Assembly (NCBI GenBank): GCA_965208325.1
Contig: OZ242326.1
Span: 736,001-800,000 of the forward strand
DNA from: Candidatus Poribacteria bacterium
Lineage (GTDB): Bacteria > Poribacteria > WGA-4E > PCPOR2b
Direction of reading: 5' to 3'
Length of the DNA stretch: 64,000 nucleotides
Shown here: in pieces, positions 36,039-56,707 of the stretch
How positions within the stretch are numbered: position 1 is the first letter of the stretch
Layout: each line of letters begins with the position of its first letter
Position numbers and translations under genes: made by a program
Notes under the pieces: generated by a model
Database searches by the model: none
Told to the model about the DNA's origin: nothing
The model's input: the letters and a program-made list of their open reading frames with translations, nothing else

Positions 36039-36908
36039 ATGAAGTCAATAAATACCGATTTCTACTTAGGGGATTGCTTAGATATACTCTCCGGTTTTGA
36101 CGCAAATTCATTCGATCTGATCTTAACTTCTCCTCCTTATGCTGACCGCCGATCTAAGACATATGGCGGCGTCAAACCCGATGAATATGTGGATTGGTTT
36201 CTACCACGAGCCGATGCCTTTTTTCAAGTCCTTAAATCGTCGGGTACTTTTATCTTGAACATCAAAGAAAAAGCCGTTAATGGAGAACGTCATACGTACG
36301 TCATCGAGTTGATACTAGCGATGAAAAAGCAGGGCTGGATTTGGACTGAGGAGTTTGTTTGGCATAAGAAAAACTGTTATCCCGGCAAATGGCCAAACCG
36401 GTTTAGGGACGCTTGGGAGAGATGTTTGCAGTTCAATAAATCCAAGAAGTTTAACATGTATCAAGACGCTGTCATGGTGCCGATGGGGGATTGGACGGAA
36501 AAGCGCTTGAAACATCTCAGTGAAACTGACCAGAGTCGCGATACATCGAGAGTCGGCAGCGGTTTCGGCAAAAACGTCTCAAATTGGGTAAATCGAAAAA
36601 TGGCATACCCCACGAATGTTTTGCACTTGGCGACAGAAACAGGAAATCGTAAACACAGCGCAGTATTTCCCAAGACGTTGCCTGAATGGTTTATCAAACT
36701 GTTTACAAAAGAAGGTGATTGGGTGCTAGATCCGTTCGCCGGCGCAGGTACAACGTGTCAGGTTGCTCAGGAACAGTTCAGGAATTCCACCGGCATTGAA
36801 ATCTTGCCTGAATATTATCATTTGGCAAGGGATAATATCAAGCCAACGCAGTATCTGCTATTTGAGGAGACTCAATATGAAACCCATTACACAACAGGAG
36901 ATAACTGA
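36039..36908 (+). CDS. Beta-class DNA amino-methyltransferase (SPPY type, likely N4-cytosine)
   Basis: Motif IV TSPPY precedes motif I DPFAGAGTT; H.A.FP motif. Confidence 0.9.
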   Translation: MKSINTDFYLGDCLDILSGFDANSFDLILTSPPYADRRSKTYGGVKPDEYVDWFLPRADAFFQVLKSSGTFILNIKEKAVNGERHTYVIELILAMKKQGWIWTEEFVWHKKNCYPGKWPNRFRDAWERCLQFNKSKKFNMYQDAVMVPMGDWTEKRLKHLSETDQSRDTSRVGSGFGKNVSNWVNRKMAYPTNVLHLATETGNRKHSAVFPKTLPEWFIKLFTKEGDWVLDPFAGAGTTCQVAQEQFRNSTGIEILPEYYHLARDNIKPTQYLLFEETQYETHYTTGDN

Positions 36909-37620
36909 TTATGTTGAGGCGAACATTAAATCGTTTCACCAAAAACGGTTAGATAAACTCCAAGCGTTGAGACTAATGGATGTCATAAAACGAAAAAATC
37001 CATATCTATTCAAAGCGAAAAACATCAACACGGCACAAGACTTTGTAAAGACCATCCTAGATGCTTTTCTGTCCTCGCAAGAAGAAGGTATTTTTGGTGG
37101 GTTTCTGGAGGAACTTGCGATTTTCATCTGTTCAGAGGTTTATGGCGGCCAGAAATCTTCAGCAGAAGGGATTGATCTAGAATTTGAAAAAGACAGTTTA
37201 AGATTCGTTGTATCAATCAAATCCGGACCAAATTGGGGAAATAGTAGCCAGATTGCAAAACTTCGGGACAACTTCAGGAAAACTAAACAAATCCTCAGCT
37301 CGAATACATCATCGGCAAATGTCGTCGCTGTTAATGGATGCTGCTATGGACAGGATCGAAAGCCAAACAAGGGCGACTATTTTAAGCTGTGTGGACAAGA
37401 GTTTTGGGCATTTATTTCCGGAGATGACAACTTGTACATAGACATAATTGAGCCTTTAGGGCATCAAGCGAAAGAAAAAAATGAGCAGTTTTTGAATGAA
37501 TACGTGAAGGTCCTCAATAGATTTACGTTAGAGTTCCTCACCAAATTCTGCACCCCTGACGGAAATGTCTGTTGGGAAGATATTGTCAAATTTAACTCGG
37601 CAAAACCCGCAGTATCATAA
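36877..37620 (+). CDS. Type II restriction endonuclease (PmeII-like)
   Basis: KRKNPYLFK, G.FLEELAIF, GIDLEF...SIKSGPNWGNSSQ; GAGGAG RBS before ATG 36877; overlaps the MTase end. Confidence 0.8.
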   Translation: MKPITQQEITDYVEANIKSFHQKRLDKLQALRLMDVIKRKNPYLFKAKNINTAQDFVKTILDAFLSSQEEGIFGGFLEELAIFICSEVYGGQKSSAEGIDLEFEKDSLRFVVSIKSGPNWGNSSQIAKLRDNFRKTKQILSSNTSSANVVAVNGCCYGQDRKPNKGDYFKLCGQEFWAFISGDDNLYIDIIEPLGHQAKEKNEQFLNEYVKVLNRFTLEFLTKFCTPDGNVCWEDIVKFNSAKPAVS

Positions 37621-37717: not shown

Positions 37718-40504
37718 ATGCTGACACTACTCCAACCAATCTGGTTATTATTAATAATTCCGCTTGGCATATCGCTGTGGGTCTGGAAACCGAGTTCGAG
37801 GTTACTCTGGATTTTCCGAGTCGTAATATTAAGTCTTGTCCTGTTAGCGATGTGCGGGCTTGCCGTGGAATTGCCGAGACGTGCCGGCACCATTGTCGTT
37901 ATCGCGGACCGTAGCTTGTCGATGCCGCCCGGCAGCGAAGCTAGGCAGAAAGAGGCTATTGATTTAATACAGAGCGAGATGCCGAGCGATTCCCGCCTTG
38001 GCGTCGTCTCCTTTGGACGAGTGTCCGCGGTCGAACAGTCACCACAAAGTGGAAAGTTCGCGGGTTTTGTCAACGAAGTGAACGGCGATGCGTCGGATCT
38101 AAACGCCGCAGTTGCGCAAGCGATAGCACTCATACCGCGAGATTCGCCCGGCAGAGTGATTCTTCTGTCGGACGGCAGATGGACTGGTAACGACCCGATG
38201 GGCACAGCTGCCCACGCCGCAGCGCGAGGTATCCCCATTGATTACCGCGCCATGCGCCGGGACTCCGTAAACGATGTTGCCATCTCCCATGTAGATGCCC
38301 CCGATGTTGCAACACCCGGTGAATCGTTTATGATTGCCGCATGGATACACGCGCCGATTTCAGGAGAAATTTCATACGAGTTGTTGCGTAATAATCAACG
38401 CCTAACGGCTGGCAAGCGGAGCGTTCCGTCCGGGCTGAGCCGTCTGATTTTCCGGGACAAAGCCGCGCAGCCGGGTACTCATCAATACGCTGTGCGAATT
38501 GGGGGAAGCGAATCCGACCCGGTGCCAGAGAACAATACGGCAAAGGTCTTGGTCGGCATTCAAGGGTCTCGCCCCATTCTTCATATCACATCCACTTCCA
38601 ATTCTGGGCTGTCGAATCTGCTGAAAGCGGGCGGTTTGGACGTAGAAACCGCTCCGCCGTCCGCATACATTTGGTCGATTGATGAACTATCAGGATTTTC
38701 GGCAGTGTTGATAGAGAATGTGTTGGCAGGTGAAATTGGCTTCCACGGCATGGATAATCTAGCCGCTTGGGTCAGAGAGACTGGGTCGGGGTTCATGATG
38801 ACCGGCGGTAAACACGCCTATGGACCGGGCGGCTATTTCAAATCTCCGCTCGAGCCAATTATGCCGCTCTCCATGGAGTTGAGACGCGAACATCGGAAGC
38901 TGTCGCTCGCGATAGTGGTGGCGATGGACCGGTCGGGCAGCATGTCAATGCCGGTAGGCGGCGGTAGGACGAAAATAGATCTCGCAAATCTCGCGACAGC
39001 GGAAGTTTTTGACATGTTGTCACCGACGGATGAGTTTGGCGTAATTGCGGTTGACAGCGCCCCGCACATTATTGCCAACCTTGCTCCTGTTGACAAACTC
39101 GGCGGAACCCGGAGCAGAATCCTTCGGATTGCCTCGCAGGGCGGCGGAATCTTCGTCTACGAAGCGCTTAGCGCCGCCTCTTCAATGTTACTCCGCGCTC
39201 AAGCCGGCACGCGGCACATCATTCTGTTTGCGGACGCCGCCGATTCCGAGCAACCCGGACGCTATATAAAGTTGCTGGATGAATGTCGAAAGGCTAACAT
39301 TACTGTCAGCGTCGTAGGACTCGGAACACCGTCCGATGTCGACGCTAAACTGCTGCGTGACATCGCCCGGCGCGGCGAGGGGCGTTGTTTTTTCACCGAA
39401 GATGCCCAAGAGTTGCCGCGTCTGTTCGCTCAGGACACGTTTGTAGTGGCGCGCGGCACGTTTGTTGACGAACCTACGCCGATTAAAACCACAGGCGGGA
39501 TGGCCGCGTTGACCGGCACTCAATATCAGATTCCGTCTTCAATCGGCGGGTACAACTTATGTTACATTCGTCCCGATGCAAACCTCGCTGCCGTGACCTT
39601 GGACGAATACAACGCGCCTGTGGTAGCGGCGTGGCAGGCAGGTACTGGACGCGTGCTCTGCTATACAGGAGAAGCGGACGGGGCACACACCGGCGCAATT
39701 GCCAATTGGAATGGTATTGGAAACCTGTTCACGAGCTTAGCACGCTGGACTGCTGGAGATTCTGCCAACCTCCCCGATGGGATGTTGCTCACACAAAAGG
39801 TCAGGAACGGCGTCGGCAAAATACAACTTCATCTCGACCCGGAACGAGAGGGTGAAATGTTCAGGGCTCTACCCAGCGTGACGATACTGCGCGGCGTAGT
39901 TGGGGAAGCGCCGACCGTGAGCAAAACCAAGTTGTCATGGACATCCGCCGACTCGCTCACTGCTGATGTGCCCATACACGGCGGTGAAACAGCGCTAGCA
40001 TCCGTGGAGGTACCGGGGGCTGGAACTGTATCGCTGCCGCCGATCTGCCTGCCGTATTCACCGGAGTTTAAGCCCGCGCCGGACGAATCCGGGCTAGCGA
40101 CAATGGAACGGCTTTCCAAAACGTCCGGGGGAAAATCGAGAGTCAGCCTCGGTGGCATTTGGGACGATTTGCCGCGCAATCCCCGTCTAATAGGTCTCGC
40201 ACCGTGGTTACTAATCGCGGCGCTCATCCTTCTGCTGCTCGAAACACTCGAACGCCGTACAGGGTTGTTTTCCATGAAACGGGCGTACAGAGTTGCAGCA
40301 GCAGTTACGCAACGAATACCCCGGAAGGCGCGCCGCACATCTCGGACGCTTTCATCGTCCGTAAAAACATCGCCGCCCACGGAGCCCGAGCACGCTGAAT
40401 CGCCGCACACTTCTCCAGAACCGGAGGCTAGCGTGGAGCGGGGTGGAATGCTAGACGCCTTAACCCAAGCGCGAAGGCGTGCCAGCGGACGGACAGGGCG
40501 TTGA
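37718..40504 (+). CDS. Membrane protein with two VWA domains and a GATase-like region
   Basis: MIDAS motifs DRSLS and DRSGS, LLSDG, N- and C-terminal TM helices. Confidence 0.88.
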   Translation: MLTLLQPIWLLLIIPLGISLWVWKPSSRLLWIFRVVILSLVLLAMCGLAVELPRRAGTIVVIADRSLSMPPGSEARQKEAIDLIQSEMPSDSRLGVVSFGRVSAVEQSPQSGKFAGFVNEVNGDASDLNAAVAQAIALIPRDSPGRVILLSDGRWTGNDPMGTAAHAAARGIPIDYRAMRRDSVNDVAISHVDAPDVATPGESFMIAAWIHAPISGEISYELLRNNQRLTAGKRSVPSGLSRLIFRDKAAQPGTHQYAVRIGGSESDPVPENNTAKVLVGIQGSRPILHITSTSNSGLSNLLKAGGLDVETAPPSAYIWSIDELSGFSAVLIENVLAGEIGFHGMDNLAAWVRETGSGFMMTGGKHAYGPGGYFKSPLEPIMPLSMELRREHRKLSLAIVVAMDRSGSMSMPVGGGRTKIDLANLATAEVFDMLSPTDEFGVIAVDSAPHIIANLAPVDKLGGTRSRILRIASQGGGIFVYEALSAASSMLLRAQAGTRHIILFADAADSEQPGRYIKLLDECRKANITVSVVGLGTPSDVDAKLLRDIARRGEGRCFFTEDAQELPRLFAQDTFVVARGTFVDEPTPIKTTGGMAALTGTQYQIPSSIGGYNLCYIRPDANLAAVTLDEYNAPVVAAWQAGTGRVLCYTGEADGAHTGAIANWNGIGNLFTSLARWTAGDSANLPDGMLLTQKVRNGVGKIQLHLDPEREGEMFRALPSVTILRGVVGEAPTVSKTKLSWTSADSLTADVPIHGGETALASVEVPGAGTVSLPPICLPYSPEFKPAPDESGLATMERLSKTSGGKSRVSLGGIWDDLPRNPRLIGLAPWLLIAALILLLLETLERRTGLFSMKRAYRVAAAVTQRIPRKARRTSRTLSSSVKTSPPTEPEHAESPHTSPEPEASVERGGMLDALTQARRRASGRTGR

Positions 40505-40531
40505 CGCTGAACTTAGAACAGTTCCAATTCC

Positions 40532-40560
40532 TTGAATTTCTGATGTAGATGTGCTAGAAT
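40532..40560 (+). promoter_or_regulatory. Sigma-70 promoter of the candidate selenoprotein gene
   Basis: TTGAAT-17nt-TAGAAT with a TGc extended -10; GGAG RBS at 40574-40577. Confidence 0.6.
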
Positions 40561-40585
40561 TAACATCCATAACGGAGAAGCCATT

Positions 40586-41263
40586 ATGTTAATTCGATAT
40601 CTATTTTACTTACCGCTACTGGTAGCAGCTATGTACGGATGGGCGGATGTGGATGAATCAATATCCACACAGCAGCAAGCCAACCGTCCGACCTCCATAA
40701 CGCCCGCCTGAAGTGCCTGACCGGGCGAAGGTGCACCGCTTCGGGGAAGCGGGATTCAAAAAAATTGGGCAATTTCGTGGCGTTATATCCGTACAGAGTT
40801 GGACCGGCCTCGCTGGCGGACGACACTGAATTACGCGGTGGCAAATAGACTTCAACTCGGCGTCGAATTCAATCCCGCTGCACGTGAGTTCGCACCGCTC
40901 GCCAACTTGTTTCTCTTCACTGAAACCAACGTCCGACCCGCGGCTGTTATAGGAACAAGTTCAGACCGTGTCGGGTCGCCGCCAAAAGAACAGGCATACT
41001 TTTTGACAATCGCCAAGCGTCTGCCCAGCGTGCCAATCTCGGCCTATGCAACCATCAACTACTCCGAATGGGACAACGGGTTCAATTTCCCTTTCGGTGC
41101 TAGCATTGATCTCGGTAATGGCTTCACTGTGCGCGGCATGTACGACGGAGATCTACCTCACCTGATGTTGAACTACTACTTTAAAGAGTTCAGCTTAAGT
41201 CTAATGTACATAAGTATCGATCAATCGCAAAGGCCGGGCATCGCGCTTTCCTCATCATTCTAA
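40586..41263 (+). CDS. Candidate exported selenoprotein with a UxxU motif and outer-membrane beta-barrel-like body (225 aa)
   Basis: ATG 40586 is in frame with the 40799 ORF. It reads MLIRYLFYLPLLVAAMYGWA|DVDE...TPA-TGA-S-A-TGA-PGEG, followed by a SECIS-like hairpin; C-terminal Phe. Confidence 0.75.
40736..40752 (+). promoter_or_regulatory. Putative bacterial SECIS hairpin
   Basis: CCGCTTC-GGG-GAAGCGG, a perfect 7-bp stem with G loop, starting 15 nt after the second UGA. Confidence 0.65.
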
Positions 41264-41294
41264 ACATTTTAATTTCCTGTTCACAACGTGTCTG

Positions 41295-42167
41295 ATGGAC
41301 GAGAATTTCCGCCAATTTCTCATTGACGGCGAACGCGCAGGAATGCAGTACGCACTGACTGCACCGCGCAATGTGCCCTTTGGGTTAGCCGGAAATCTAA
41401 CAGGGAAGCGTCCGGGGAGTTCACTGGAGTTTATTGACCACCGGGAATACCAACCGGGCGACGACCTGCGAAGAATTGATTGGGGCGGCTTCGCTCGAAG
41501 CGACAAATTGACGGTAAAGTTGTACCGTGACGAAGTCAACCCGCATCTAGACCTTGTCATTGATGGATCGCGCTCCATGGCACTTGAAAACTGCCCCAAA
41601 GCGCAAGCTACGCTTGGGTTAGCGGCAGTTTTTGCAACGGCGGCTGCGAATGCCGGTTACTCCCACTCCACCTGGATGGCGGGGGATGGATATCGCAGGG
41701 TGGGAAACGGCGCAGACCGACCCTCAATTTGGCAGGGGATTGACTTTGAATATCGGGGCGACCCTTCCACGTCTTTCGCCAAACTCCCGCCCTCGTGGCG
41801 TCCCTATGGGATGCGCGTGTTACTTAGCGACCTGCTCTGGCCGAGCGACCCGACCGCGGCGCTGTCTCGATTCGCTGAACGCGCCGCCGCCGTAATTCTG
41901 GTCCAAGTCTTATCGGAGGTAGACGTTAATCCCATTGAACGCGGCAACATTCGACTTGTTGATTCAGAGACCGATGATGTGCAAGAAATATTCTTGGACG
42001 CGGTTGCTGAAAAGCGGTACCGCGCCGCATTCGCACACCATCAGGAGAACTGGAATCTCGCCGCGAAACGCGCTGGAATTGTGATGACAACGGTTATGGC
42101 AGAGCGCATCCTGAGCGATTGGAGATTAGAAACGCTGGTTGCCGCTGAGGTGCTAAACACGGCATAG
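41295..42167 (+). CDS. DUF58 family protein (MoxR-associated)
   Basis: GSSLEFIDHREYQPGDDLRRIDW, IDGSRSM, LLSDL. Confidence 0.92.
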   Translation: MDENFRQFLIDGERAGMQYALTAPRNVPFGLAGNLTGKRPGSSLEFIDHREYQPGDDLRRIDWGGFARSDKLTVKLYRDEVNPHLDLVIDGSRSMALENCPKAQATLGLAAVFATAAANAGYSHSTWMAGDGYRRVGNGADRPSIWQGIDFEYRGDPSTSFAKLPPSWRPYGMRVLLSDLLWPSDPTAALSRFAERAAAVILVQVLSEVDVNPIERGNIRLVDSETDDVQEIFLDAVAEKRYRAAFAHHQENWNLAAKRAGIVMTTVMAERILSDWRLETLVAAEVLNTA

Positions 42168-45778: not shown

Positions 45779-48700
45779 TTGAAAAAATTTGTCCTGATTG
45801 CACTCGCCACCCTCATCCTTTCACAAGTCAACACTACGCGAAGTACCACTGACCACGCCTCGCACGAGCCCATACAATCTGCGCTACAGTCAAAGCGTTT
45901 CAATGATGCGGTACACCTCATTGATACCGCATTGACGGCATCAGAGAATCAACCTGACTATCTGCTCTATCTTAAGGGGCTTGCGCTGTTCCATAATGGG
46001 GATTACCGGAACGCAATTGGGACGTGCGGCCAGGTCATACAGGATTACCCTGATTCCACTTGGTTGAGGAAAGCGGCGTTTCTTCAAGCCAAGAGTCATC
46101 TCAAACTGAAGGAATTTAAGCAGGCTGAAGCAATCTACAGCAAAGAGGTTAGTCGGCTTCTCTCGTCCAGACGCAAATCGGAAATTGCCCAAATTTACAT
46201 TCAGCTTGCCGAAACCTTCGCGCAAAAACCCAATGACGCAGATCTCGATGCCCCCCAGCCGAACTACCAGAAAGCGTACGAACTGTATCAAAAGGTATTG
46301 ACGCTAGAGATTGACGCTAACCTACGCGAAACGGCCGCCTTCCAACTCGGACGCATGATGCAGTTGCAGGAGAATTACGCACAAGCCGTTGTTGACTACG
46401 AAGCCTACCTTACACAATTTGATCCCAGTTTTCAGCGCCCGCCCGCTTTGCCAATGCCTTCAAAGAAGAGCAAAACGCTTGATGGCCGACGCTATCATGC
46501 CCGTTACCATCTTGCGGAATGCCAGATAGCGTTGAATCAGCACCTACAGGCGCGATTGACACTTGAGGACATGTTAAAATTGGCTGATGTTGGAAGCAAG
46601 GCACTATTACCTCTCGCCAAAGACGCTCGCTTCTTGTTGACCCGGACCTACCGTTTCCCGGCGCCCAACTCCAACGAGGAGTTGGAATTAGGCGTACAAT
46701 CCGCCAGAAGGTTTCAGGAGCAGTTTCCTCGTGACTTGCGCTCAATGACGCTAGCGCACGAAATCGCTGAAGCATATCGGGCGCGGCATCGAAGCGAGGA
46801 AGCGCTCGCCGCCTACCAAGATGTTATCGACAAAAAGAGCTTCAAAGTAACCCAAAAGAAGTGGCAAATTTCAAATCTCAACAACCAAGATTACCATTAC
46901 CTCCGTACTTCCGCCGCATTTCAAATCGGAAACATTCTGTTCGAACAGCGAAAATATAACCATGCAATTGAAGCGTGGAATAGATACATTCGAGAATTTC
47001 CCAACGGACCTCAATGGACCGACGCCCAACAGGGAATTGTTAACGCCGAATTCCAAATTGGTGTAACGCTCCTCGCCGCGGAAAAACACGAAGAAGCCGT
47101 GAATGCGTTCGATGCCTTCCAAGCAAAACACCCGCTGGATGAACGAGTGCGGCAGATAATGTTTATTTATGGCCAAATTCACGCTCACAAATCCGAGCAT
47201 CAGCTTGCAATTGCCGAGTGGGAAAAGCTCGTGAGAAAATTCCCGAACACTGAAGAATCATCGCTAGCGCTCTTTCGCATCGGGCAGACCTACGAAATTA
47301 AATTGGGAGATCTGGAAAATGCGCTAGAATCTTACCGAAGGCTAACCTGGGGAAGCTGGCACCCTCATGCGCAAGAGGTAATTCGCCAGATGACGGAAAA
47401 AAGCCTTCAACTTGTCACACCGCGCACTTTCCGCACGAATGAACCGCCTTACGTACACGTGTCGCTTCGCAATATTGAATCCCTCACGGTGAATCTTTAC
47501 AAGCTCAATCTTGAAGCCTACTGGCGCAAGATGCACGAAGTGAAAGGCGTGGAGGATCTCGATCTTGGGTTGATTGAGCCGAACAAAACTTGGCAATACA
47601 ATGTGCCTGAATACGAGAAGCACAAAAGCTTTGAGTGCGAAATCAACATCCCGTTTGCCGGACCCGGCGTTTACGCGGTACAACTCGGCGATGAGTCGCT
47701 CGAATCAACCACACTCCTCATTCGCAGCGATATTGAGACTATCACCAAGACATCCCGCCGCGAGGTACTTGTATTCGTGCAAAATATGCTGAACGGAGAA
47801 GTGGTCGCCGATGCTAAGGTGCTTGTAAGCGACGGCTCAAGCGTAATTTTCGAAGGACGCACTGGAGCGGACGGTGTACTCCATGCAACTGAACGCGGCA
47901 TTTTGGATTACGCGTCAGTAGAGAACCAACTTAAGGATGCGAGTCGGGTGGCGGCATTCGTCGTCAAGGGTGGACACGCCGCCGCAGACGGGTTAGACAT
48001 TTCAGGGCTTGGCTTCAGCAAAGGCTTGACGCCGCGCGGCTATATCTACACCGACCGGCCCGCATACCGACCGCGAGAAAGCGTTTCATTGCGCGGCATA
48101 ATCCGCGATGTTAGCGATGGCGCCTACGTGGTACCGGACGGCGCACCATTTAACGTCTCGGTCATTGATGCTCGGGGACGCCAAATCCATAAAGAGGAGG
48201 TCACACTCTCTCAGTTTGGCGGGTTTGATACGCAGTTGCAGCTTGACAATGCCGCCTCTGTCGGCGAATACCGCATCCGTGTGGCACAATTCGACCCAGA
48301 TACAAAGCTAGATATCCCAAGCCACATATTCACAGGAAACTTCCAAGTTCAGCGATTCCAACTCGAAAAGGTACAGTTGCTGCTCGATTTTCCGCGCAGC
48401 GTCTACTTTCGCGGTGAACAGGTGGATGCTACCTTTACGGCACGATACTATTACGGCCAGCCGGTGAAGAACGCAAAAATTCAATACAAACTTCCCGACG
48501 GCCGGAGCTATACTGAAACCGCTGATAATCGGGGAATACTGAAGGTCAATTTCGATACGGCATCTATGCAACCCGGCAAACCGCTTCATTTCAGCGGGAC
48601 GGTTCTGGGTGAGAATGTTAGCGTTAAAACCTCTGTGACGCTTGCGCATCTCGGATATTCAATTTCGGTGCAACCTGACGCTAAACTTGTGCTCTCCGGT

Positions 48701-51700
48701 GAACCGTTCCACGTAACAGTTCACACTAAAGGAGCTGATGGGCGTCCGGTTGGCAAGAAATTAACCGTCAAGGTGGTAAAAAAGCAGAGCAGCAGTCCCA
48801 TTTCGCCAGTGATGTCTCAGGTTCCTTGGATTAATAGAGAAGGTGTGTTCCGTTCTGCCGAAATTATCATCCAAGAACACAGCCTGCAGACAGATTCCCT
48901 AACTGGTGCCGGTACAATTCAGTTGGCCCTAAACACCGGCGGCGTTTTTGAAGTCCGCGCCAGTGGTACCGATCGGTTCGGTCAAACTGTCGTCGGCTCT
49001 CGGAGCGTCACTATCTCCGACGACGGCGATAAAACCAAACTTCGCATTTTCGCCCAGGGTACAAAGACGCAGGTGGGCGCCTCCGAAACGCTTCGCCTTC
49101 ACTCGCGATTGAAACCCGTACACACTCTGATCACATACGAAGGTGAAGTCATTATCGGATATGAAGTCCGCGTGCTGAAACCGGGAAATAATCGGCTTCA
49201 GTTCACAATCGGGCACCAACACTTCCCGGATTTTTACATTGGGGTAGCGGCAATTGAAGATCGAAGCCTACACACCGCAAGGAAACGCTTTACCGTCGAA
49301 AGGCAACTAAATTTATCCGTGACTTGGACGGATACCGATCCGATTCACGGCTCCAACCAGACGCTTCCCGGCTATATGCCCGGTGCGGCCGCGAAAATCC
49401 AAGTCCGCGCTACTGATCAACTTGGTCAGCCGGTCAGGGCTGAATTTTCACTCGCGTTGGTGGACGAAGCGCTGTTCGCCATATACAAAGATGGCGTGAT
49501 GAATATTAACGATTTCTTCCAGAAAGGGCTCCGGCGCCGTGCAGCCATGCGCACCGCTTCAAGCTGTACCTTCCAATACATGCCAACTACACGGCCTGTA
49601 GTTCAGGAGGCTTTAGCTGAGGCACGACGGCTCTTAATTGAAGCGGAGGCGCTTAGTCTTGAGGACATTGATTCTGGGAAAACGGCAGAAAGAGTATTTT
49701 CAAGGAAACGGCGCGTGCGCCCATCTGTTCTTAAGCGGGCAATGCGCGAAAGACGCCCTAATGTGCCTTCTTATGATGAACCAAAGGTACGAGAAGAATC
49801 TACCTACGCCGGTTTTTGGATAGGAATCGTCATCACAGACGATGCTGGCTTGGCAATTGTAACCATCCCCATGCCGGAAAAGACGACGAAATGGCGGCTG
49901 ACTGCGCGTGGATCCACCGTTGATACACTCGTTGGACAAGTCAGTGTGAACGCCGTGACGCGGAAAGATCTCTTCCTCAACGTGCGCACCCCGGCATTCG
50001 TTACCGAAGGCGATGAGCTGCGATTAGGCGTCCGACTCCATAACATGACCGACTACAGAGGAGAAGCCGACGTTCAAATCACGATGTCCGTTGATGAATC
50101 ACAGCCCGTTTACCGAGACCACAAAAGAACTACGATTACGGCCCAAGATGCGGCAGAGATAATCTTCGACAGGTTCACTATCCCCTCTGGAAAACTGCAC
50201 ACCAGTTCACAACCAAGCCAAATTACCATTGAGGCGATGGCAACTGCGGGCTCATTGAGCGATGGAATTCAGCGCACAATCCCGGTTCGCCCGTGGGGTC
50301 TGGAATACACCGATACGCAGAGCGGAACGGCGGCTAGCAATAAAACAGTTTACGTGCAACTCCCGTCCGATTTGCGCTACACGCGGAAAGGACTTTCAGT
50401 CAATATTGGTCCGAGCGTATCGCGGCTAATTTATGATCTCGCACTCGACCACTATCCCCGGCCATACCAGATTGGGTCTGTAAGACGACCGCTCATCATT
50501 CCCAGTGATGCCGGCAGCGACCTACTCGCGGTGGCGTCCGCCATCGACTATCAAAAACAAGTGGACGGCAATCCGACCGATAACCGCAGGTTGCTGACTC
50601 GGGCGATGACGCTCGTCAATCGACTCGTAACGACACAAAATGAAGACGGCGGCTGGAGTCTGGTTCGTGGTGCGGCAGGGAGCAACGGCCGTGTATCAGC
50701 CCGCAACCTTTGGGCGTTGACAACGACACGCGGCAGCGGCGTTGCGGTTAACGACCAGACGATTGCCAACGCTGTACATTTCCTCAAAACAGCTTTCGCC
50801 CAGACCGATAAAAACGGCGAAGACACACAGGCGTCAACCCTCCATGCCCTCTCGACGCTAGGTGACGTGGATTTCGCGCACGCAAACCGCCTGTATCGGC
50901 GTCGGAATCAGTTGAGCAATGTTTCGTTGGCATACGCTGCATTGGTCTTTGTTAATCTCAACCGCTTGGAGATTGCGGGCGAGATACTTGATATATTGGA
51001 ACGCCGCGGTCTATTGCCCGATGAAAAAAGGAACTCAAAGGCTTCTACTTCGTACGCAGCCAGCGGTCAAGTGGAGACCGTGGCTTTGGCGCTGTTAAGC
51101 ATGCAAGCAGTCCGCCCAAGTTCTGCGTGGGTAAAGGATGCGGTGGATTATCTAATTGATCAACGCCGTTACTACGGTTATTCGCCGTACGCCGCTAAGG
51201 GCGCCGTCGTCGCCGCACTAGCAACCTACTATCAGGCGGCGCAATATGCGGCAGACGACTACAGACTAATCTTGCTCGTGAACGGTGAACCGCTCGAAAC
51301 AATTGCAATTCAGAAGGATTCTATTAACCGCCTAATTCACGTGCCCGCCGCGCAAATTCTCGACGGACAGAACCGCGTCGAGATGCAAATCGAAGGGCAG
51401 GGGACTTATACGTACCTTGTTACAATCAGCGGGTTTTCTCAAGACGTGCCGAACTGGGTCGGCGCTGAACCGGAGATGGGCGGAAGTTTGAAAAACACAC
51501 GAATTAACCGCCGTTACCTTCACCCACCGCTTGAATATCGGGGCAAGCCCATCGGCGTGCAGAGTACGTCAGGAATTACTCAATTGGAAGCCGGGGCAAA
51601 GATGCAAGTCTCTGTCAACATCGTGCATGGCATTGGCGCGCTCACGCCCGACCACAGGTCTAAGGGCGCGTACGTCGTTGTGGATGAATTTTTCCCCGCC

Positions 51701-53638
51701 GGGACAACGGTCATTGACAGTACTGTTAATGGCGATTTTCAACACTACGATGTCGGAGACGGTGTAATCCGTTTCTACTATGGGCCCCGCGCTGCCTTTA
51801 GGCACTACAGCTATCAGCTAGTCAGCTATGCGCCAGGCGAATACCGCGTCGCCCCAACTGTAATGCGCGACATTCAAAGCCCCGATAATATGCGGCTGGG
51901 ACCAGCGGCTTCGCTAACCGTGCTAGGACCAGGCGAAAAATCCAAAGACACCTATGAGATGAATAACGCAGAAAACTTTGCACTAGGGAAAGCCTATTTC
52001 GACGACGGGAAGTATGGCGATGCGCGCCCATTGCTCGAAACACTATACAAAGACAGTCCAAAATTCGACGCAAAAGAGACCGCGAGGATGCTTTTGTGGA
52101 TTTACACGACAGACGAACACTACGGTGCGAGGCATGTCGTCCAAGCTTTTGAGGGTTCTCGCTACCACTATCCAGATCTCGAAATTCCTTTTGACAGGAT
52201 TCAGGTAGTCAGCTCGGCATACCGTGATATTGGAGAATTTGAACGCGCAACCATGGTTCATCGCTCCGCAATCGATTCCAGCTTTGCTCGGGACGCGAAT
52301 GTTAGCGCGGCTCTTCAGGACCAAGGTGAATTCTTGCGTTCGATCGAATTCATTGAAGATTTGTGGCGTGAATACCCTGATACTCCTACGACCATTCCCG
52401 CCTACTTCGCAATCGCACAGTCTCTCTATGCGAGTAAAGATGCCGCGGATGGTAGAGCAAAACCAGCGCCCAAAATTCAAACCCTTAATCGAACGGTGGA
52501 GATTCTGTCTCAATTCTTGACGCTGTACCCGACGAATCCGCTAGCCGACGACGCCGCGTTTTCGCTCGCGAACGCATATATGGACCTGGAGGATTTTCAG
52601 AATGTAGTGCAACTTTGCCGCTTGAATCAGGCGTACCGCCCGGACAGCGTGCTGTTGAGCAGTTTTCAATATATGGAAGCGCTCGCGCTCTTTGCACTGA
52701 ACCAATATGACAAAGCCATTAAAGCAGCGACGCTTGTGGCATCAAGTGAAAGCGAAGACCGTGATTTTGCGCGGTACATCGTCGGGCAAATTTACCATGC
52801 GCAGGGCAAACCGGCACAAGCGATTGACTGGTACAGCCGTGTCAGGCAAATCTACCCCGATGCGGATGAATCCATCGCTCATTTTGAAGCGCAGCAGATT
52901 ACCATCCCCGAAGTCACAATTAAGCGCCCGAATACTGATGTGATTGTAGCGATGAATCATCGAAACATCAAGTCGGCAGAAATTCAGGTGTACCGTATTG
53001 ATCTGATGAATCTCTATCTGCGCGAGAAAAATCTCAGCCGTGTAACTCAAGTACATTTAGCGGGCATAGAACCGGAGGTCAGCCAAACCGTTGAGTTGAG
53101 TGACGAGAAAAATTACAAAGAGGCAACCCGCGACATCTCTCTACCAATTGCAGAAGATGGGGCATACCTCGTCATCTGCCGCGGCGGCAATCTGTCCGCG
53201 AGCGGTTTGATTTTGATTACGCCGTTGGAGATTGAGGTACAGGAGGGCGCCGTGAGCGGCCGTGTACGCGTCGTTGTGCGGGACGCGCTTTCAGGCAAAT
53301 ATCAATCGAGCGTCCATGTCAAAGCGGTAGGTTCTGCAGGCGGGCGATTTATCTCAGGCGAAACAGATTTCCGCGGCATTTTCATCGCCGACGGTATACA
53401 CGGCACGACTACTGTCATCGCCCGCCAAGGCACGAACCGTTATGCGTTCCATCGCGGCAATTTGTGGCTTGGTTCCCCACCCTCCGATTCAGAATCGCCC
53501 CCAATCCCAAGGGCAGCAACAGACTATCGTCAGCATCTCAAACATAAAAATCAAGCAATCCAAACGTCAAACATTGAGAGGTTTGACCGTCTGCGACGAG
53601 CACCCAGCAACGGAGTCCAGCTCCAGCACACTTATTAA
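45779..53638 (+). CDS. Giant TPR plus alpha-2-macroglobulin family protein (2619 aa)
   Basis: N- and C-terminal TPRs, MG2 motif YTDRPAYRP, LALVDEAL, TD..G.A....MP...T.WR, QNEDGGWS. Confidence 0.88.
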   Translation: MKKFVLIALATLILSQVNTTRSTTDHASHEPIQSALQSKRFNDAVHLIDTALTASENQPDYLLYLKGLALFHNGDYRNAIGTCGQVIQDYPDSTWLRKAAFLQAKSHLKLKEFKQAEAIYSKEVSRLLSSRRKSEIAQIYIQLAETFAQKPNDADLDAPQPNYQKAYELYQKVLTLEIDANLRETAAFQLGRMMQLQENYAQAVVDYEAYLTQFDPSFQRPPALPMPSKKSKTLDGRRYHARYHLAECQIALNQHLQARLTLEDMLKLADVGSKALLPLAKDARFLLTRTYRFPAPNSNEELELGVQSARRFQEQFPRDLRSMTLAHEIAEAYRARHRSEEALAAYQDVIDKKSFKVTQKKWQISNLNNQDYHYLRTSAAFQIGNILFEQRKYNHAIEAWNRYIREFPNGPQWTDAQQGIVNAEFQIGVTLLAAEKHEEAVNAFDAFQAKHPLDERVRQIMFIYGQIHAHKSEHQLAIAEWEKLVRKFPNTEESSLALFRIGQTYEIKLGDLENALESYRRLTWGSWHPHAQEVIRQMTEKSLQLVTPRTFRTNEPPYVHVSLRNIESLTVNLYKLNLEAYWRKMHEVKGVEDLDLGLIEPNKTWQYNVPEYEKHKSFECEINIPFAGPGVYAVQLGDESLESTTLLIRSDIETITKTSRREVLVFVQNMLNGEVVADAKVLVSDGSSVIFEGRTGADGVLHATERGILDYASVENQLKDASRVAAFVVKGGHAAADGLDISGLGFSKGLTPRGYIYTDRPAYRPRESVSLRGIIRDVSDGAYVVPDGAPFNVSVIDARGRQIHKEEVTLSQFGGFDTQLQLDNAASVGEYRIRVAQFDPDTKLDIPSHIFTGNFQVQRFQLEKVQLLLDFPRSVYFRGEQVDATFTARYYYGQPVKNAKIQYKLPDGRSYTETADNRGILKVNFDTASMQPGKPLHFSGTVLGENVSVKTSVTLAHLGYSISVQPDAKLVLSGEPFHVTVHTKGADGRPVGKKLTVKVVKKQSSSPISPVMSQVPWINREGVFRSAEIIIQEHSLQTDSLTGAGTIQLALNTGGVFEVRASGTDRFGQTVVGSRSVTISDDGDKTKLRIFAQGTKTQVGASETLRLHSRLKPVHTLITYEGEVIIGYEVRVLKPGNNRLQFTIGHQHFPDFYIGVAAIEDRSLHTARKRFTVERQLNLSVTWTDTDPIHGSNQTLPGYMPGAAAKIQVRATDQLGQPVRAEFSLALVDEALFAIYKDGVMNINDFFQKGLRRRAAMRTASSCTFQYMPTTRPVVQEALAEARRLLIEAEALSLEDIDSGKTAERVFSRKRRVRPSVLKRAMRERRPNVPSYDEPKVREESTYAGFWIGIVITDDAGLAIVTIPMPEKTTKWRLTARGSTVDTLVGQVSVNAVTRKDLFLNVRTPAFVTEGDELRLGVRLHNMTDYRGEADVQITMSVDESQPVYRDHKRTTITAQDAAEIIFDRFTIPSGKLHTSSQPSQITIEAMATAGSLSDGIQRTIPVRPWGLEYTDTQSGTAASNKTVYVQLPSDLRYTRKGLSVNIGPSVSRLIYDLALDHYPRPYQIGSVRRPLIIPSDAGSDLLAVASAIDYQKQVDGNPTDNRRLLTRAMTLVNRLVTTQNEDGGWSLVRGAAGSNGRVSARNLWALTTTRGSGVAVNDQTIANAVHFLKTAFAQTDKNGEDTQASTLHALSTLGDVDFAHANRLYRRRNQLSNVSLAYAALVFVNLNRLEIAGEILDILERRGLLPDEKRNSKASTSYAASGQVETVALALLSMQAVRPSSAWVKDAVDYLIDQRRYYGYSPYAAKGAVVAALATYYQAAQYAADDYRLILLVNGEPLETIAIQKDSINRLIHVPAAQILDGQNRVEMQIEGQGTYTYLVTISGFSQDVPNWVGAEPEMGGSLKNTRINRRYLHPPLEYRGKPIGVQSTSGITQLEAGAKMQVSVNIVHGIGALTPDHRSKGAYVVVDEFFPAGTTVIDSTVNGDFQHYDVGDGVIRFYYGPRAAFRHYSYQLVSYAPGEYRVAPTVMRDIQSPDNMRLGPAASLTVLGPGEKSKDTYEMNNAENFALGKAYFDDGKYGDARPLLETLYKDSPKFDAKETARMLLWIYTTDEHYGARHVVQAFEGSRYHYPDLEIPFDRIQVVSSAYRDIGEFERATMVHRSAIDSSFARDANVSAALQDQGEFLRSIEFIEDLWREYPDTPTTIPAYFAIAQSLYASKDAADGRAKPAPKIQTLNRTVEILSQFLTLYPTNPLADDAAFSLANAYMDLEDFQNVVQLCRLNQAYRPDSVLLSSFQYMEALALFALNQYDKAIKAATLVASSESEDRDFARYIVGQIYHAQGKPAQAIDWYSRVRQIYPDADESIAHFEAQQITIPEVTIKRPNTDVIVAMNHRNIKSAEIQVYRIDLMNLYLREKNLSRVTQVHLAGIEPEVSQTVELSDEKNYKEATRDISLPIAEDGAYLVICRGGNLSASGLILITPLEIEVQEGAVSGRVRVVVRDALSGKYQSSVHVKAVGSAGGRFISGETDFRGIFIADGIHGTTTVIARQGTNRYAFHRGNLWLGSPPSDSESPPIPRAATDYRQHLKHKNQAIQTSNIERFDRLRRAPSNGVQLQHTY

Positions 53639-53854: not shown

Positions 53855-56707
53855 GTGGCGCAAAGTGATGCCGAACTTATAAGGCGTACGTTGGACGGCG
53901 ATGATAACGCATTCGGCTTTTTGGTGGACAAATACAAGGGCGCCGTGCACGCCCTCGCTTACCGAAAAATCGGTGACTTTCACATTGCTGAAGACATTAC
54001 GCAAGACACTTTCCTCAAGGCATACCAGAAACTTTCTACGCTGAAGCGTCACGAAAACTTTTCGGGATGGTTATATGTGATTGCGGCGCGGTGCTGCATC
54101 TCCTGGCTTCGAGAAAATCAGCACCCAATGCAATCTCTTGAGCAGGTAGGTGCGGCACAGGTCGAAGCATCCGCAGAACGGGAGTATTCGGCCGATCGGG
54201 TGCGTAAGCAACTGCAGGAAGCGCTGGAAAACCTACCTGAAAGCGACCGAACCGTTCTGACGCTGCACTACCTTGGCGGGATGACCTACGAAGAGGTAAG
54301 CCGTTTCATCGGTGCTTCAACCGGCGCCGTCAAGAACCGTCTCTATCGGGCACGACACCATCTGAAGGAGGAGCTAATTAAAATGATACATCAGACTTGG
54401 GGGACTCTCCAACTTCCACCAACTTTCACGCAGCAGTTGGTTGAAAAAATCTACCGTCTCAATCCAGCTCCAGCACCGGTCAGCAAACCGCAGGCGCCAT
54501 GGATCACTGCGGTAACGCTTGGCGTGGCGGCACTTTTTGTTGTGGCTGGCAAGTTATTCACATCTGAATTCCAGCAGCCCTATTCGCTCAATCCATCTAC
54601 ATCAGTAAAATTAATCGAATTGACAGAGGCACCAATAGTTGAGACACCTTTGCCGAAACCGTCATTTGCCAATCACTATGATGGAGATGGCAATCCTGTT
54701 ATGGCTTTCGCAGCCGGCGGCGGCGATACGAAACAGGTAGATAAACTGCGAGGTAGCATTTCTGGGCACGTCATTTACGCCGGTACTGGGAAACCTGCCG
54801 CTGACGTACCCATTCGTGCTGCAGGAATCCAGCCGGGTATCGGAGATGCGCACGCGCACACGGGTGCAGATGGAACGTATGTTTTGGAGAATGTTCCCGT
54901 TGGACCATACGTTGTCATGATCGGCGACACCTGGGAATGGCATGAAACCTTTGATTGGCGGGCGCCGGCTAATGAAGGCATCCATGTCGAACCAGACAGC
55001 ATCTCGACGGGTGTTGATTTTTCATTAACGCCGGGAGGATTCGTTGAAGGCAAGATAACCGACGGCGACACAGGCGAACCTGTCGCGGGCGTACAGATCC
55101 AGGTTTATGATGCCGCACACCCAAACAGTCAAGGCGTGGGGCATCGGCTTAACACCGACAACCAAGGGCGTTATCGTTTTCGTGTAACGCCCGGAAGAGT
55201 CCTTGTTGTAGCCAACACAACCAACAACGACGCACCGTATTACATACCATTCCCTGGCGGTGAATTTTACGGGGAAGTCGCAGAGAGTGAAACGCTTTCT
55301 GATATCGACTTTGAATGTCTACGTGGCTATAGCATACACGGCACGTTGGTTACAGCGGACGAGCAGCCGATCGCGGGCGCGTCCGTCCGGGCAAATATCA
55401 TTCCAATCAAGGGTTTAGTCGAATTGCCGAATCACGCTGCGACAGATGCACAAGGAAGATTCACATTGAAAGGAATACCAGTAAACGAAGAAACTGAACA
55501 GTTAGTAATCATTGCAGAACATGATAATCTCCGCGGCAGAGCGAGCTGGTCCAAGGAACAAGTTAGTGCCGTCGAAATTACGCTCGTACCCCGACCTACC
55601 GCTACCATTGTCGGTCAAGTAATTGACGTGCAAGGAAGTCCAATTTCCCATGCCGGAATTGGGTTGAGTTGGGAGGAGGGCTTCGCAGGCACAGCCACTA
55701 CTTCACCCAATTCACCAGTTGTAGTGACAAGCCCAGAGGGTAATTTCACTGTCGGTCCAACATTCTCGTTCGGTAAATCGTGGTTGGAAGTCGGTGGAAA
55801 ATATCAGATTCATGCCACGGCGGCGGAGTATGGAAGAACTTCTTCAGAATGGTTTACTCTGCAAGAAGGCGAACACACAATTCCGGCGCTTGTTTTGCAT
55901 AGAGCAGAACACTTCATTGCCGGGCAAGTTGCGGACTGGAAGGGTCAGCCTGTCAGTGGCGCAACCGTTTTCGCAGAAGGCAGTCGCACAGCAGTAAACG
56001 GCGTCTCTGACCACGAAGGGAGATTTAGTCTGAGTAATATTGCTGATAGTCGAATTAAAGTGTATGCATTTCATCAAGGTCCCGACTGTTCTGACACAGA
56101 TGCCGAATTTGATGCAAATCGGGAGGATGTGCGCGTTATATTGGCACCGAATAAACCCATGATTAGTGATGTTGCAGGCAATAGTATCCGATTCGACCCT
56201 TTTCCGTACCCACTTGAAGGTAAGCAGGCACCCGAACTGAAAATCTATAGCCGGCACAGTTGGTTGAACTCCGAACCCATTGCGCTGAGTTCACTGCGCG
56301 GCAAAATTGCTGTCTTAAATTTTTGGTCGACCTATGTCAACCAAGAAAGTTGCGACCCTTGGCTTCCAACGCTAAATCGCATCCATGAGAAATATAGCGA
56401 TAAGGGAGTAATTGTAATCGGTGTACATACGTCCGTGCATCAATTGGAGGGACACCCTGACATTCAAGAAATTGAGAAATCGGTTATCCAGTGGCGGATA
56501 AAATACCCGATTGCTATTGATTCGGCAGGAGCTAACGCTAATGTTGACGTGAATGACTGGCCGAGTCAATTCGGCGCAACGTTTAACGACTACCTCGTAC
56601 GGTCCCTTCCAACAATCCTATTCGTCGACAGGGCGGGCAAAGTCAGAACACTTTTTCTCATCGGAGGTACCCTCGACGAGAAAGTGAACGCGTTATTGAA
56701 CGAGTAA
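53855..56707 (+). CDS. ECF sigma factor fused via a TM helix to carboxypeptidase-regulatory-like repeats and a TlpA/redoxin-like domain
   Basis: AEDITQDTFLKAY..L, FSGWLY.IA, region 4 VKNRLYRAR, TM WITAVTLGVAALFVV, repeated G.V.D..G.P..GA, and LRGKIAVLNFW...LPT..FVDRAGKVR. Confidence 0.88.
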   Translation: MAQSDAELIRRTLDGDDNAFGFLVDKYKGAVHALAYRKIGDFHIAEDITQDTFLKAYQKLSTLKRHENFSGWLYVIAARCCISWLRENQHPMQSLEQVGAAQVEASAEREYSADRVRKQLQEALENLPESDRTVLTLHYLGGMTYEEVSRFIGASTGAVKNRLYRARHHLKEELIKMIHQTWGTLQLPPTFTQQLVEKIYRLNPAPAPVSKPQAPWITAVTLGVAALFVVAGKLFTSEFQQPYSLNPSTSVKLIELTEAPIVETPLPKPSFANHYDGDGNPVMAFAAGGGDTKQVDKLRGSISGHVIYAGTGKPAADVPIRAAGIQPGIGDAHAHTGADGTYVLENVPVGPYVVMIGDTWEWHETFDWRAPANEGIHVEPDSISTGVDFSLTPGGFVEGKITDGDTGEPVAGVQIQVYDAAHPNSQGVGHRLNTDNQGRYRFRVTPGRVLVVANTTNNDAPYYIPFPGGEFYGEVAESETLSDIDFECLRGYSIHGTLVTADEQPIAGASVRANIIPIKGLVELPNHAATDAQGRFTLKGIPVNEETEQLVIIAEHDNLRGRASWSKEQVSAVEITLVPRPTATIVGQVIDVQGSPISHAGIGLSWEEGFAGTATTSPNSPVVVTSPEGNFTVGPTFSFGKSWLEVGGKYQIHATAAEYGRTSSEWFTLQEGEHTIPALVLHRAEHFIAGQVADWKGQPVSGATVFAEGSRTAVNGVSDHEGRFSLSNIADSRIKVYAFHQGPDCSDTDAEFDANREDVRVILAPNKPMISDVAGNSIRFDPFPYPLEGKQAPELKIYSRHSWLNSEPIALSSLRGKIAVLNFWSTYVNQESCDPWLPTLNRIHEKYSDKGVIVIGVHTSVHQLEGHPDIQEIEKSVIQWRIKYPIAIDSAGANANVDVNDWPSQFGATFNDYLVRSLPTILFVDRAGKVRTLFLIGGTLDEKVNALLNE

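Follow-up and report, generated by a model that had tools for sequence, protein, structure and literature searches.

Is the open reading frame (ORF) of 154 amino acids at positions 40799-41263 of this stretch of Candidatus Poribacteria DNA a gene in its own right, or the tail of a longer gene whose beginning is hidden by in-frame stop codons? The window analyzed here is a stretch of 64,000 nucleotides (nt) from contig OZ242326.1 of assembly GCA_965208325.1 (positions 736,001 to 800,000). In it, the initial annotation had noticed an ATG at 40586 in the same frame, two intervening TGA codons and a hairpin behind them, and had proposed an exported protein with two selenocysteines (Sec, U) in a UxxU arrangement. 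We consider it likely that 40586-41263 is one gene, encoding a secreted UxxU selenoprotein with a single hairpin and a barrel, with a role in metal or redox handover. Judged from sequence, the product is very probably a selenoprotein; metal handover is a more tentative suggestion for its function, made by analogy, and the data here indicate no metal specificity.

The frame runs from ATG 40586 to the TAA at 41261-41263 on the forward strand, as do all features described below, and the only stops inside it are TGA 40709 and TGA 40718. Translated with TGA as U it forms a full coding sequence of 225 residues and the stop codon, in agreement with full-length orthologues and with the codon-position pattern given below, and the 154-residue ORF with its TTG start is the tail of this frame. 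The two UGA codons (40709-40711 for Sec42 and 40718-40720 for Sec45) stand in CxxC spacing: TGA AGT GCC TGA reads U42-S-A-U45, in the context TPA-U-S-A-U-PGEGAPLRGSG. A ribosome-binding site, GGAG, is found at 40574-40577, 8 nt before the ATG, and a purine-rich stretch lies upstream of the equivalent ATG in many Poribacteria orthologues. The promoter-like site TTGAAT-17-TAGAAT at 40532-40560, with TG before the -10 hexamer, is also present as described by the initial annotation, but as a consensus match only: the scan gave four such sites in 1.2 kb, this one among them, against 0.8 expected. The hydrophobic N-terminus ending in YGWA|D and the C-terminal Phe were both recovered in the translation. 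Residues 1-20 (MLIRYLFYLPLLVAAMYGWA, 40586-40645) are predicted to be a signal peptide, based on reading of the sequence and on the conservation of like N-termini among orthologues across the family.

Contigs from three other studies allow a comparison: X5 and X7 cover all of the stretch and X6 the part between 40668 and 41146, with 2, 1 and 19 differences, none of them at 40709-40720 or 40736-40752. As these independent contigs agree at both TGAs and at the hairpin, the TGAs are not assembly errors. Run X7 also holds a 44-nt contig of depth 221 that covers the second TGA and the hairpin only (window positions 40718-40758) with a few differences, and short contigs in X1 and X5 are likewise limited to the second TGA and the hairpin, again with a few differences; these look like the conserved stretch around the hairpin of other family members in the same samples. 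The 24 runs listed included no RNA run that contains the gene.

Both TGAs are retained in every motif-spanning match and every fetched locus. When 61 related Poribacteria genomes were searched with read-through of stop codons, 38 matches were obtained, of which all 35 that span the motif have exactly two TGAs and keep the hairpin; the remaining three are short fragments, two of them at the very start of a contig. A wider scan across species used one genome per species, and the best 80 of 181 relatives were fetched (27 Poribacteria and 53 other loci). TGA-6 nt-TGA occurs within the gene in 80/80 loci, each with exactly two U, and the hairpin recurs in the same loci. The taxa given in their records are Poribacteria, Latescibacterota, Gemmatimonadota, Acidobacteriota/Thermoanaerobaculia, Eisenbacteria, Calditrichia, Planctomycetota and others. 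The frame and both TGAs are maintained across several phyla at about 50% identity, with the family motif P-[TAS]-U-x-[AG]-U at the UGA pair. Among 176 genomes of the phylum Poribacteria, those with the gene belong to three families within a single order (21/28, 11/11 and 4/7); in the largest family it was not found (0/112).

The conservation is of a coding type. In 30 Poribacteria orthologues the entropy at the three codon positions amounts to 0.48/0.45/0.98 before the UGAs and 0.23/0.26/0.85 after them, from which it follows that both sides are translated in one frame. Conservation upstream of 40799 is thus present, with coding-type codon-position entropy, and the best-conserved protein sequence of the whole family is the stretch between the second UGA and 40799 (PGEGAPLRGSG...RYVDTELDRPRWR), which evolves as coding sequence. 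A genome-wide reassignment of TGA (codes 4 or 25) was ruled out, as TGA ends the upstream VWA gene (TGA 40502) and serves as the stop codon in 12/30 of the orthologues. In a database protein search 12 relatives were found, 10 of which start past the TGAs, and the other two, on short contigs, read W-x-x-W. Tryptophan at both sites (P0009, P0012, P0111), the outcome that the initial annotation had held to count against selenocysteine, was ruled out as well: the DNA of locus L119, which is P0009-like, reads TGA. The W-x-x-W entries are likely the result of gene calling under a code with TGA as Trp on short contigs, the DNA having been checked at L119 only.

Homologues with cysteine at the same sites support the same conclusion. 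A profile of 48 family members was compared to 1.84 billion representative proteins and retrieved 236 at E<=0.001. Most of the best 150 of these 236 begin at profile position 50 or later, as truncated calls or fragments. Eight of the 150 reach the motif: four are Cys-Cys, one is W-x-x-W (P0111), one is C-x-x-W (P0021) and two lack the pair (P0058, P0142). Cysteines align on U42 and U45 in P0039, P0041 and P0109 (PTCAGCAGEA) and in P0054 (ATCAGCAGEA), and the CAGC motif also occurs in P0047 (PTCAGCAGEA) and in fusion proteins with a YHS domain that matched in two stretches. The DNA of Cys-type metagenome loci has TGC/TGT codons at both sites in 9/10 cases (L147 missed the motif pattern), and the conserved hairpin has no equivalent downstream of the motif in these loci. 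Homologues therefore have TGA at both positions in the close clade and Cys at both in the distant clade. In a tree of 80 Sec-type, 10 Cys-type and 7 motif-less rows, built by a quick search only and rooted at the midpoint, the three groups each fall on one side of a branch, with support of 94, 100 and 88 in the Shimodaira-Hasegawa-like approximate likelihood ratio test. The Sec clade is uniform for the UGA pair, and the 27 Poribacteria rows are nested within it (support 94). The distant relative P0021 reads P-A-C-V-G-W-PGEG and may represent a mixed CxxU form, if its W is a TGA artefact.

Bacterial selenocysteine insertion involves a selenocysteine insertion sequence (SECIS), and a SECIS-like hairpin with a 7-bp stem, CCGCUUC/GAAGCGG, and a GGG loop is found at 40736-40752, starting 15 nt past the second TGA. 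In an alignment of 81 sequences (77 distinct), 99.1% of the 539 cells of the 7-bp helix are paired, compared to at most 69.6% in controls in which the partner strand was slid by 1-3 columns. Changes on both sides occur at 3/7 pairs, in 39 cells, with pair counts of G-C 53, G-U 13 and A-U 7, of C-G 44 and U-A 29, and of a single G-C among 76 C-G. In a shuffle test 0/500 alignments reached the observed values on four of five measures and 4/500 on the fifth, the number of pairs changed on both sides, and RNAalifold gives the same helix independently. The compensating substitutions are synonymous ones at third codon positions (CCG/AGC to CCA/AGT for Pro/Ser, CTT/GGA to CTC/GGG for Leu/Gly), and third-position entropy is 0.36 in the hairpin codons as opposed to 0.82-0.98 in the flanks. 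The hairpin is thus conserved with covariation across the family.

The geometry of the hairpin is that of a bacterial SECIS, with a G-first loop (GGG or GUG across the family) that begins 22 nt past the second UGA and 31 nt past the first. A G in first or second place within the apical loop is the rule in bacterial SECIS elements (PMC13582414). No Rfam match was found in 40400-41400 at E<=10. The spacing used by bSECISearch is 16-37 nt. Within the same genome, 11 nt separate the UGA of selD from a 6-bp stem with a GGG loop. In a UxxC TlpA-like gene the gap is 10 nt and the stem, of 7 bp, carries a GGU loop, while in another AhpC/TSA gene 15 nt lead to a 6-bp stem with a GUU loop. The distance from UGA to loop is 17-21 nt in these three clear examples, and the 22 nt of the second UGA fit. 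A second hairpin for the first UGA was ruled out, with RNAalifold showing one helix and a trivial 2-bp pair. The suggestion that one SECIS might serve two UGAs therefore holds to the extent that this hairpin is the only conserved structure downstream of both.

The machinery for selenocysteine insertion is present in full. The genome, a single contig of 4.7 Mb, encodes selA (588.7 bits), selB (373.5 bits) with a tRNA-Sec gene (selC, 77.5 bits) adjoining it, and selD, which itself has one in-frame TGA. ARAGORN reports 49 tRNA genes in the whole genome, among them one tRNA-Sec (tca), one ordinary 75-nt tRNA-Cys (gca) and one tRNA-Trp; it shows no second selC-like gene, but unusual allo-tRNAs may escape this program. 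Other Rfam tRNA-Sec matches are below the gathering score, and five that were checked are ordinary Ser, Leu, Trp and Cys tRNAs. As selA is over the cut-off in 163/176 Poribacteria genomes, the use of Sec is general in the phylum and the machinery alone does not single out the barrel gene. It completes the set of features by which a bacterial selenoprotein is recognized: conserved in-frame UGAs with coding flanks, Cys homologues, a stem-loop, and selA/selB/selC/selD. Other frames of this genome also carry an in-frame TGA, namely selD (C1:4481278-4482201, reverse strand) and four AhpC/TSA-family frames (C1:1378231, 4184435, 135149 and 4409456, with the contexts TSG-U-TAEVC, WTTS-U-GPC, GTW-U-PNS and GQW-U-PSC). 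Three of these five have a short G-first hairpin 17-21 nt downstream.

With the frame established, the nature of the protein can be considered. An AlphaFold2 model built with a 48-row alignment (predicted local distance difference test score, pLDDT, 78.1; predicted TM-score 0.73) shows 12 main strands between residues 61 and 224, and DSSP also marks a 3-residue strand at 165-167. The predicted 12-strand beta-barrel domain comprises residues 61-225 (40766-41260) with Phe at its end, a residue that is nearly invariant in the family. Foldseek matches in the PDB are mostly outer-membrane barrels: FapF (5o68, E 2.2e-5), KdgM (4fqe, TM-score 0.54/0.69, root-mean-square deviation 4.3 over 176 columns), NanC (2wjr), a designed 10-strand barrel, and porins. 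The barrel-like outer-membrane protein suspected by the initial annotation is thus what the model predicts, and the signal peptide (read by eye), the even number of strands and the C-terminal aromatic residue are consistent with it. Queried with C in place of U, the protein matched no Pfam-A family at E<=0.01, including no match to the KdgM model, and no family of NCBIfam release 20 at E<=1, including NF041115, NF041027 and NF049945. In even-stranded barrels the N-terminus is in the periplasm by the usual topology, and the N-terminal tail would by analogy start there. The conserved motifs DRPRWR, GTSSDRxGSP, NYSEWD..FPFG and MYDG..H would lie in or beside the outward loops of the model. In 72/80 members the sequence that begins 15 residues ahead of the motif and runs up to the C-terminus contains no Cys, so that the two Sec of these mature proteins must act as a pair.

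Indications for a function come mainly from outside the Poribacteria. Directly downstream of the barrel gene, 46/53 of the non-Poribacteria loci have a partner gene that starts within a few tens of bases; two of the seven loci without it have less than 250 nt of downstream sequence. The partner is a secreted protein with a four-Cys YHS/TRASH domain (CxxC...FCxxxC) and a TlpA-like thioredoxin fold, in which WATWCxPC is invariant among 8 aligned sequences; it matches AhpC-TSA, Redoxin and YHS, and SCO1/SenC weakly. In four Cys-type homologues of 389-418 amino acids (P0035, P0045, P0053, P0057) YHS domains are fused ahead of the CxxC barrel, in tandem in three of them, and this gene fusion links YHS and barrel independently of the neighborhood. 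Pfam matches beside YHS in the fusions include the putative metal-binding domain of cation-transport ATPases, and YHS domains have a role connected with copper. A wider conserved operon was ruled out, as in 8 scanned loci the flanking genes are unrelated (ankyrin, amidohydrolase, peptidase, aminotransferase and others). Ankyrin genes flank the family in two Latescibacterota/Gemmatimonadota loci.

Taken together, these observations suggest the following scenario. Translation would start at ATG 40586 and continue through both UGAs, which SelB and tRNA-Sec would decode as selenocysteine under the direction of the single hairpin at 40736-40752. Cleavage of the signal peptide would leave a flexible N-terminal tail of about 40 residues in front of a 12-strand outer-membrane barrel ending in Phe, and the P-[TA]-U-x-[AG]-U segment of the tail would hold the only chalcogen nucleophiles of the protein. 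The tail may face the periplasm or the lumen of the barrel, and its selenol pair or diselenide could take up a soft metal ion (Cu(I)-like) or chalcogen species and pass it on, or else carry reducing equivalents. The partner would be the periplasmic YHS-plus-TlpA-like protein encoded next door in most other phyla, its place being taken in Cys-type relatives by the YHS domains fused to the barrel.

Several of our results weigh against parts of this scenario. The YHS-TlpA partner is adjacent in 0/27 Poribacteria loci (in one of them the sequence ends 24 nt downstream), and in the window the two-gene module is absent, the downstream gene being DUF58. A search for YHS-TlpA proteins in this genome returned thioredoxin-fold matches and one YHS match of 24 bits, below the cut-off; as no such partner was found in this genome, the argument from the partner is borrowed from other phyla. 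Genes beyond the pair of barrel and partner are not conserved in the 8 scanned loci and indicate no pathway. In the structural model, pLDDT is below 50 at residues 20-34 and 49-53, and the placement of the tail relative to the barrel is not fixed. Finally, the first UGA lies 31 nt from the loop, beyond the 17-21 nt of the three clear SECIS examples of this genome; its decoding efficiency, and even the residue inserted, are for that reason less certain than for the second UGA. The 24-bit YHS-like match is a 224-residue secreted or membrane protein (L146 1285-1959, C1 about 3.259 Mb) with a His-rich stretch and a Met-rich segment, unlinked to the barrel gene and, from its sequence, possibly copper-binding.

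With the gene and the fold left as they are, the UxxU pair might form a catalytic redox centre instead of a metal site, reducing peroxides, disulfides or oxidised chalcogens at the outer membrane and being recycled by the TlpA-like neighbor. We hold this to be rather unlikely, although many catalogued bacterial selenoproteins are thiol-oxidoreductase-like or of the UxxC/CxxU type, and most uncharacterized ones are probably redox proteins (PMC13188914). The AhpC/TSA-Redoxin fold of the conserved neighbor with its WCxPC motif is in line with catalysis, and the lack of any other Cys in 72/80 mature proteins fits a self-contained U-U couple. Yet the neighbor always has the four-Cys YHS/TRASH domain in addition, it is YHS that the Cys-type relatives fuse to the barrel, and a disordered tail is an unusual place for a catalytic site. 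Metal and redox roles need not exclude each other, and the data here do not separate them. A more specific version of the handover, in which the tail threads its own barrel as a swinging selenol arm that moves a soft metal, Se/S species or reducing equivalents and is recharged by a YHS-TlpA-type reductase, appears improbable to us. If true, it would amount to a selenocysteine-built relay across the outer membrane, and to an example from nature in which two UGAs 9 nt apart are decoded by one bacterial SECIS.

The remaining alternatives concern the decoding itself. One or both UGAs could be recoded as a residue other than Sec: a tRNA of the tRNA-ReC (selC*) type that depends on the SECIS would insert Cys, or near-cognate read-through would insert Trp. 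The 31 nt between the first UGA and the loop are unusually long, and tRNA-ReC-like genes are enriched in genomes with UxxU hydrogenases, in which one or both UGAs might be Cys (PMC13582414). The 49 tRNA genes of this genome, in contrast, comprise a single tRNA-Sec, an ordinary tRNA-Cys and one tRNA-Trp (with the reservation that ARAGORN may miss allo-tRNAs); the sub-threshold tRNA-Sec matches that were checked are ordinary Ser, Leu, Trp and Cys tRNAs, and the W of the database entries is TGA in the L119 DNA. Moreover, both UGAs persist throughout the Sec clade, even though a single substitution, to TGC/TGT, would turn either into a Cys codon, and recoding of this kind seems very improbable. 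Least credible of all is the absence of read-through, with a leader ORF ending at UGA 40709 and a separate barrel ORF (e.g., from TTG 40799), or a decaying pseudogene. This is what gene callers report, with 10/12 database relatives starting past the TGAs and most of the 150 homologues beginning at profile position 50 or later. The barrel ORF alone, though, lacks a signal peptide as well as conserved start codons, and the stretch from the second UGA to 40799 is the best conserved of all and shows the evolution of coding sequence. At about 50% identity, several phyla share the frame and both TGAs, and the Cys-type homologues read straight across the same positions. A single selenoprotein gene at 40586-41263 accordingly remains our preferred interpretation.

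The surroundings of the gene vary. It lies between a VWA gene upstream (37718-40504, 928 amino acids, stop TGA 40502-40504) and the DUF58 gene downstream (41295-42167), as the initial annotation had stated, and this arrangement holds for the window and for locus L051. It is limited to the genus and is not a feature of the family, as other Poribacteria have different neighbors. Elsewhere in the window, a type II restriction-modification pair occupies 36039-37620, with an N6_N4 DNA methylase (36039-36908) and an EcoO109I-type endonuclease (36763-37620) whose ORFs overlap by about 145 nt. An ORF of 2619 amino acids (45779-53638) has TPR repeats together with bacterial alpha-2-macroglobulin domains (MG2, A2M, bait region). 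It is followed by an ORF of 950 amino acids (53855-56707) in which regions 2 and 4 of an extracytoplasmic function (ECF) sigma factor are joined, in an unusual fusion, to several CarboxypepD_reg domains and, at the C-terminus, an AhpC/TSA domain, and by an ankyrin-repeat protein of 558 amino acids (58479-60155).

The gene described here adds a multi-phylum selenoprotein family whose Sec-type members are usually cut short by gene callers, as a consequence of which databases hold mostly headless barrels or false-Trp versions. For a Sec pair, an outer-membrane channel in the cell envelope is an uncommon site, and the architecture is likewise unusual for Sec chemistry. With its UGAs uniformly retained in a deep clade, beside a sister clade with Cys-Cys, the family provides a natural system for the question of diselenide versus disulfide. 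Whether one SECIS serves two UGAs is a question raised in 2026 (PMC13582414), for which the locus offers a compact test case of about 45 nt. For the Poribacteria, as sponge symbionts, the gene is an addition to a large selenoproteome, which in this genome includes selD and the four AhpC/TSA-family frames with an in-frame TGA.

Among known systems, the decoding is ordinary bacterial Sec insertion, whereas the family, its location and the two-Sec tail are not catalogued in the sources compared. The family is absent from Table 1 of a 2026 catalogue of 119 selenoprotein families (PMC13188914), and searches of full texts turned up no account of it; supplementary tables and BSepDB were outside the scope of this comparison and could list it. 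The only UxxU entries of that table are a Prx-like oxidoreductase, a metal-binding protein (NF041115) and an FmdB-family protein, which share with our protein two Sec in CxxC spacing and a presumed soft-metal or redox role (PMC13188914). These catalogued proteins are soluble domains of known folds; here, a disordered tail precedes an outer-membrane barrel that has no Pfam or NCBIfam match. Entries in the outer membrane are limited in the same table to GSU2204/MtrB-like (NF041027) and the FCYXU TonB-dependent receptor (NF049945) (PMC13188914). Both resemble our protein in having Sec in a predicted outer-membrane beta-barrel protein, but they have one Sec each, in contrast to a small 12-strand barrel with two Sec outside of it and no match to either model. 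Barrels of the MtrB/PioB family and of TonB-dependent receptors are much larger than 12 strands.

The oligogalacturonate-type porins KdgM and NanC, and FapF, a channel for amyloid secretion, share the fold of a 12-strand outer-membrane barrel. Their sequence identity is 8-14%, without a match to the Pfam KdgM model, and none of them has a Sec or Cys pair. For the partner in other phyla, the closest parallel is formed by TlpA-type periplasmic thiol:disulfide reductases, which reportedly act on copper-site proteins (ScoI/CoxB in Bradyrhizobium). Like these, the partner bears a signal peptide and a thioredoxin fold with WCxPC, and it matches SCO1/SenC weakly; unlike these, it adds a four-Cys YHS/TRASH domain, is paired with an outer-membrane barrel and not with a cytochrome oxidase subunit, and is not adjacent in the window. 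With respect to the decoding, the closest resemblance is to the UXXU hydrogenases, reported in 2026 from Poribacteria among other phyla (PMC13582414). These also have two UGAs 9 nt apart, a single SECIS-like hairpin proposed for both, and a G at loop position 1 or 2 (PMC13582414). In the hydrogenases Sec and Cys forms are mixed within clades (PMC13582414), whereas the Sec clade of the barrel family is uniform.

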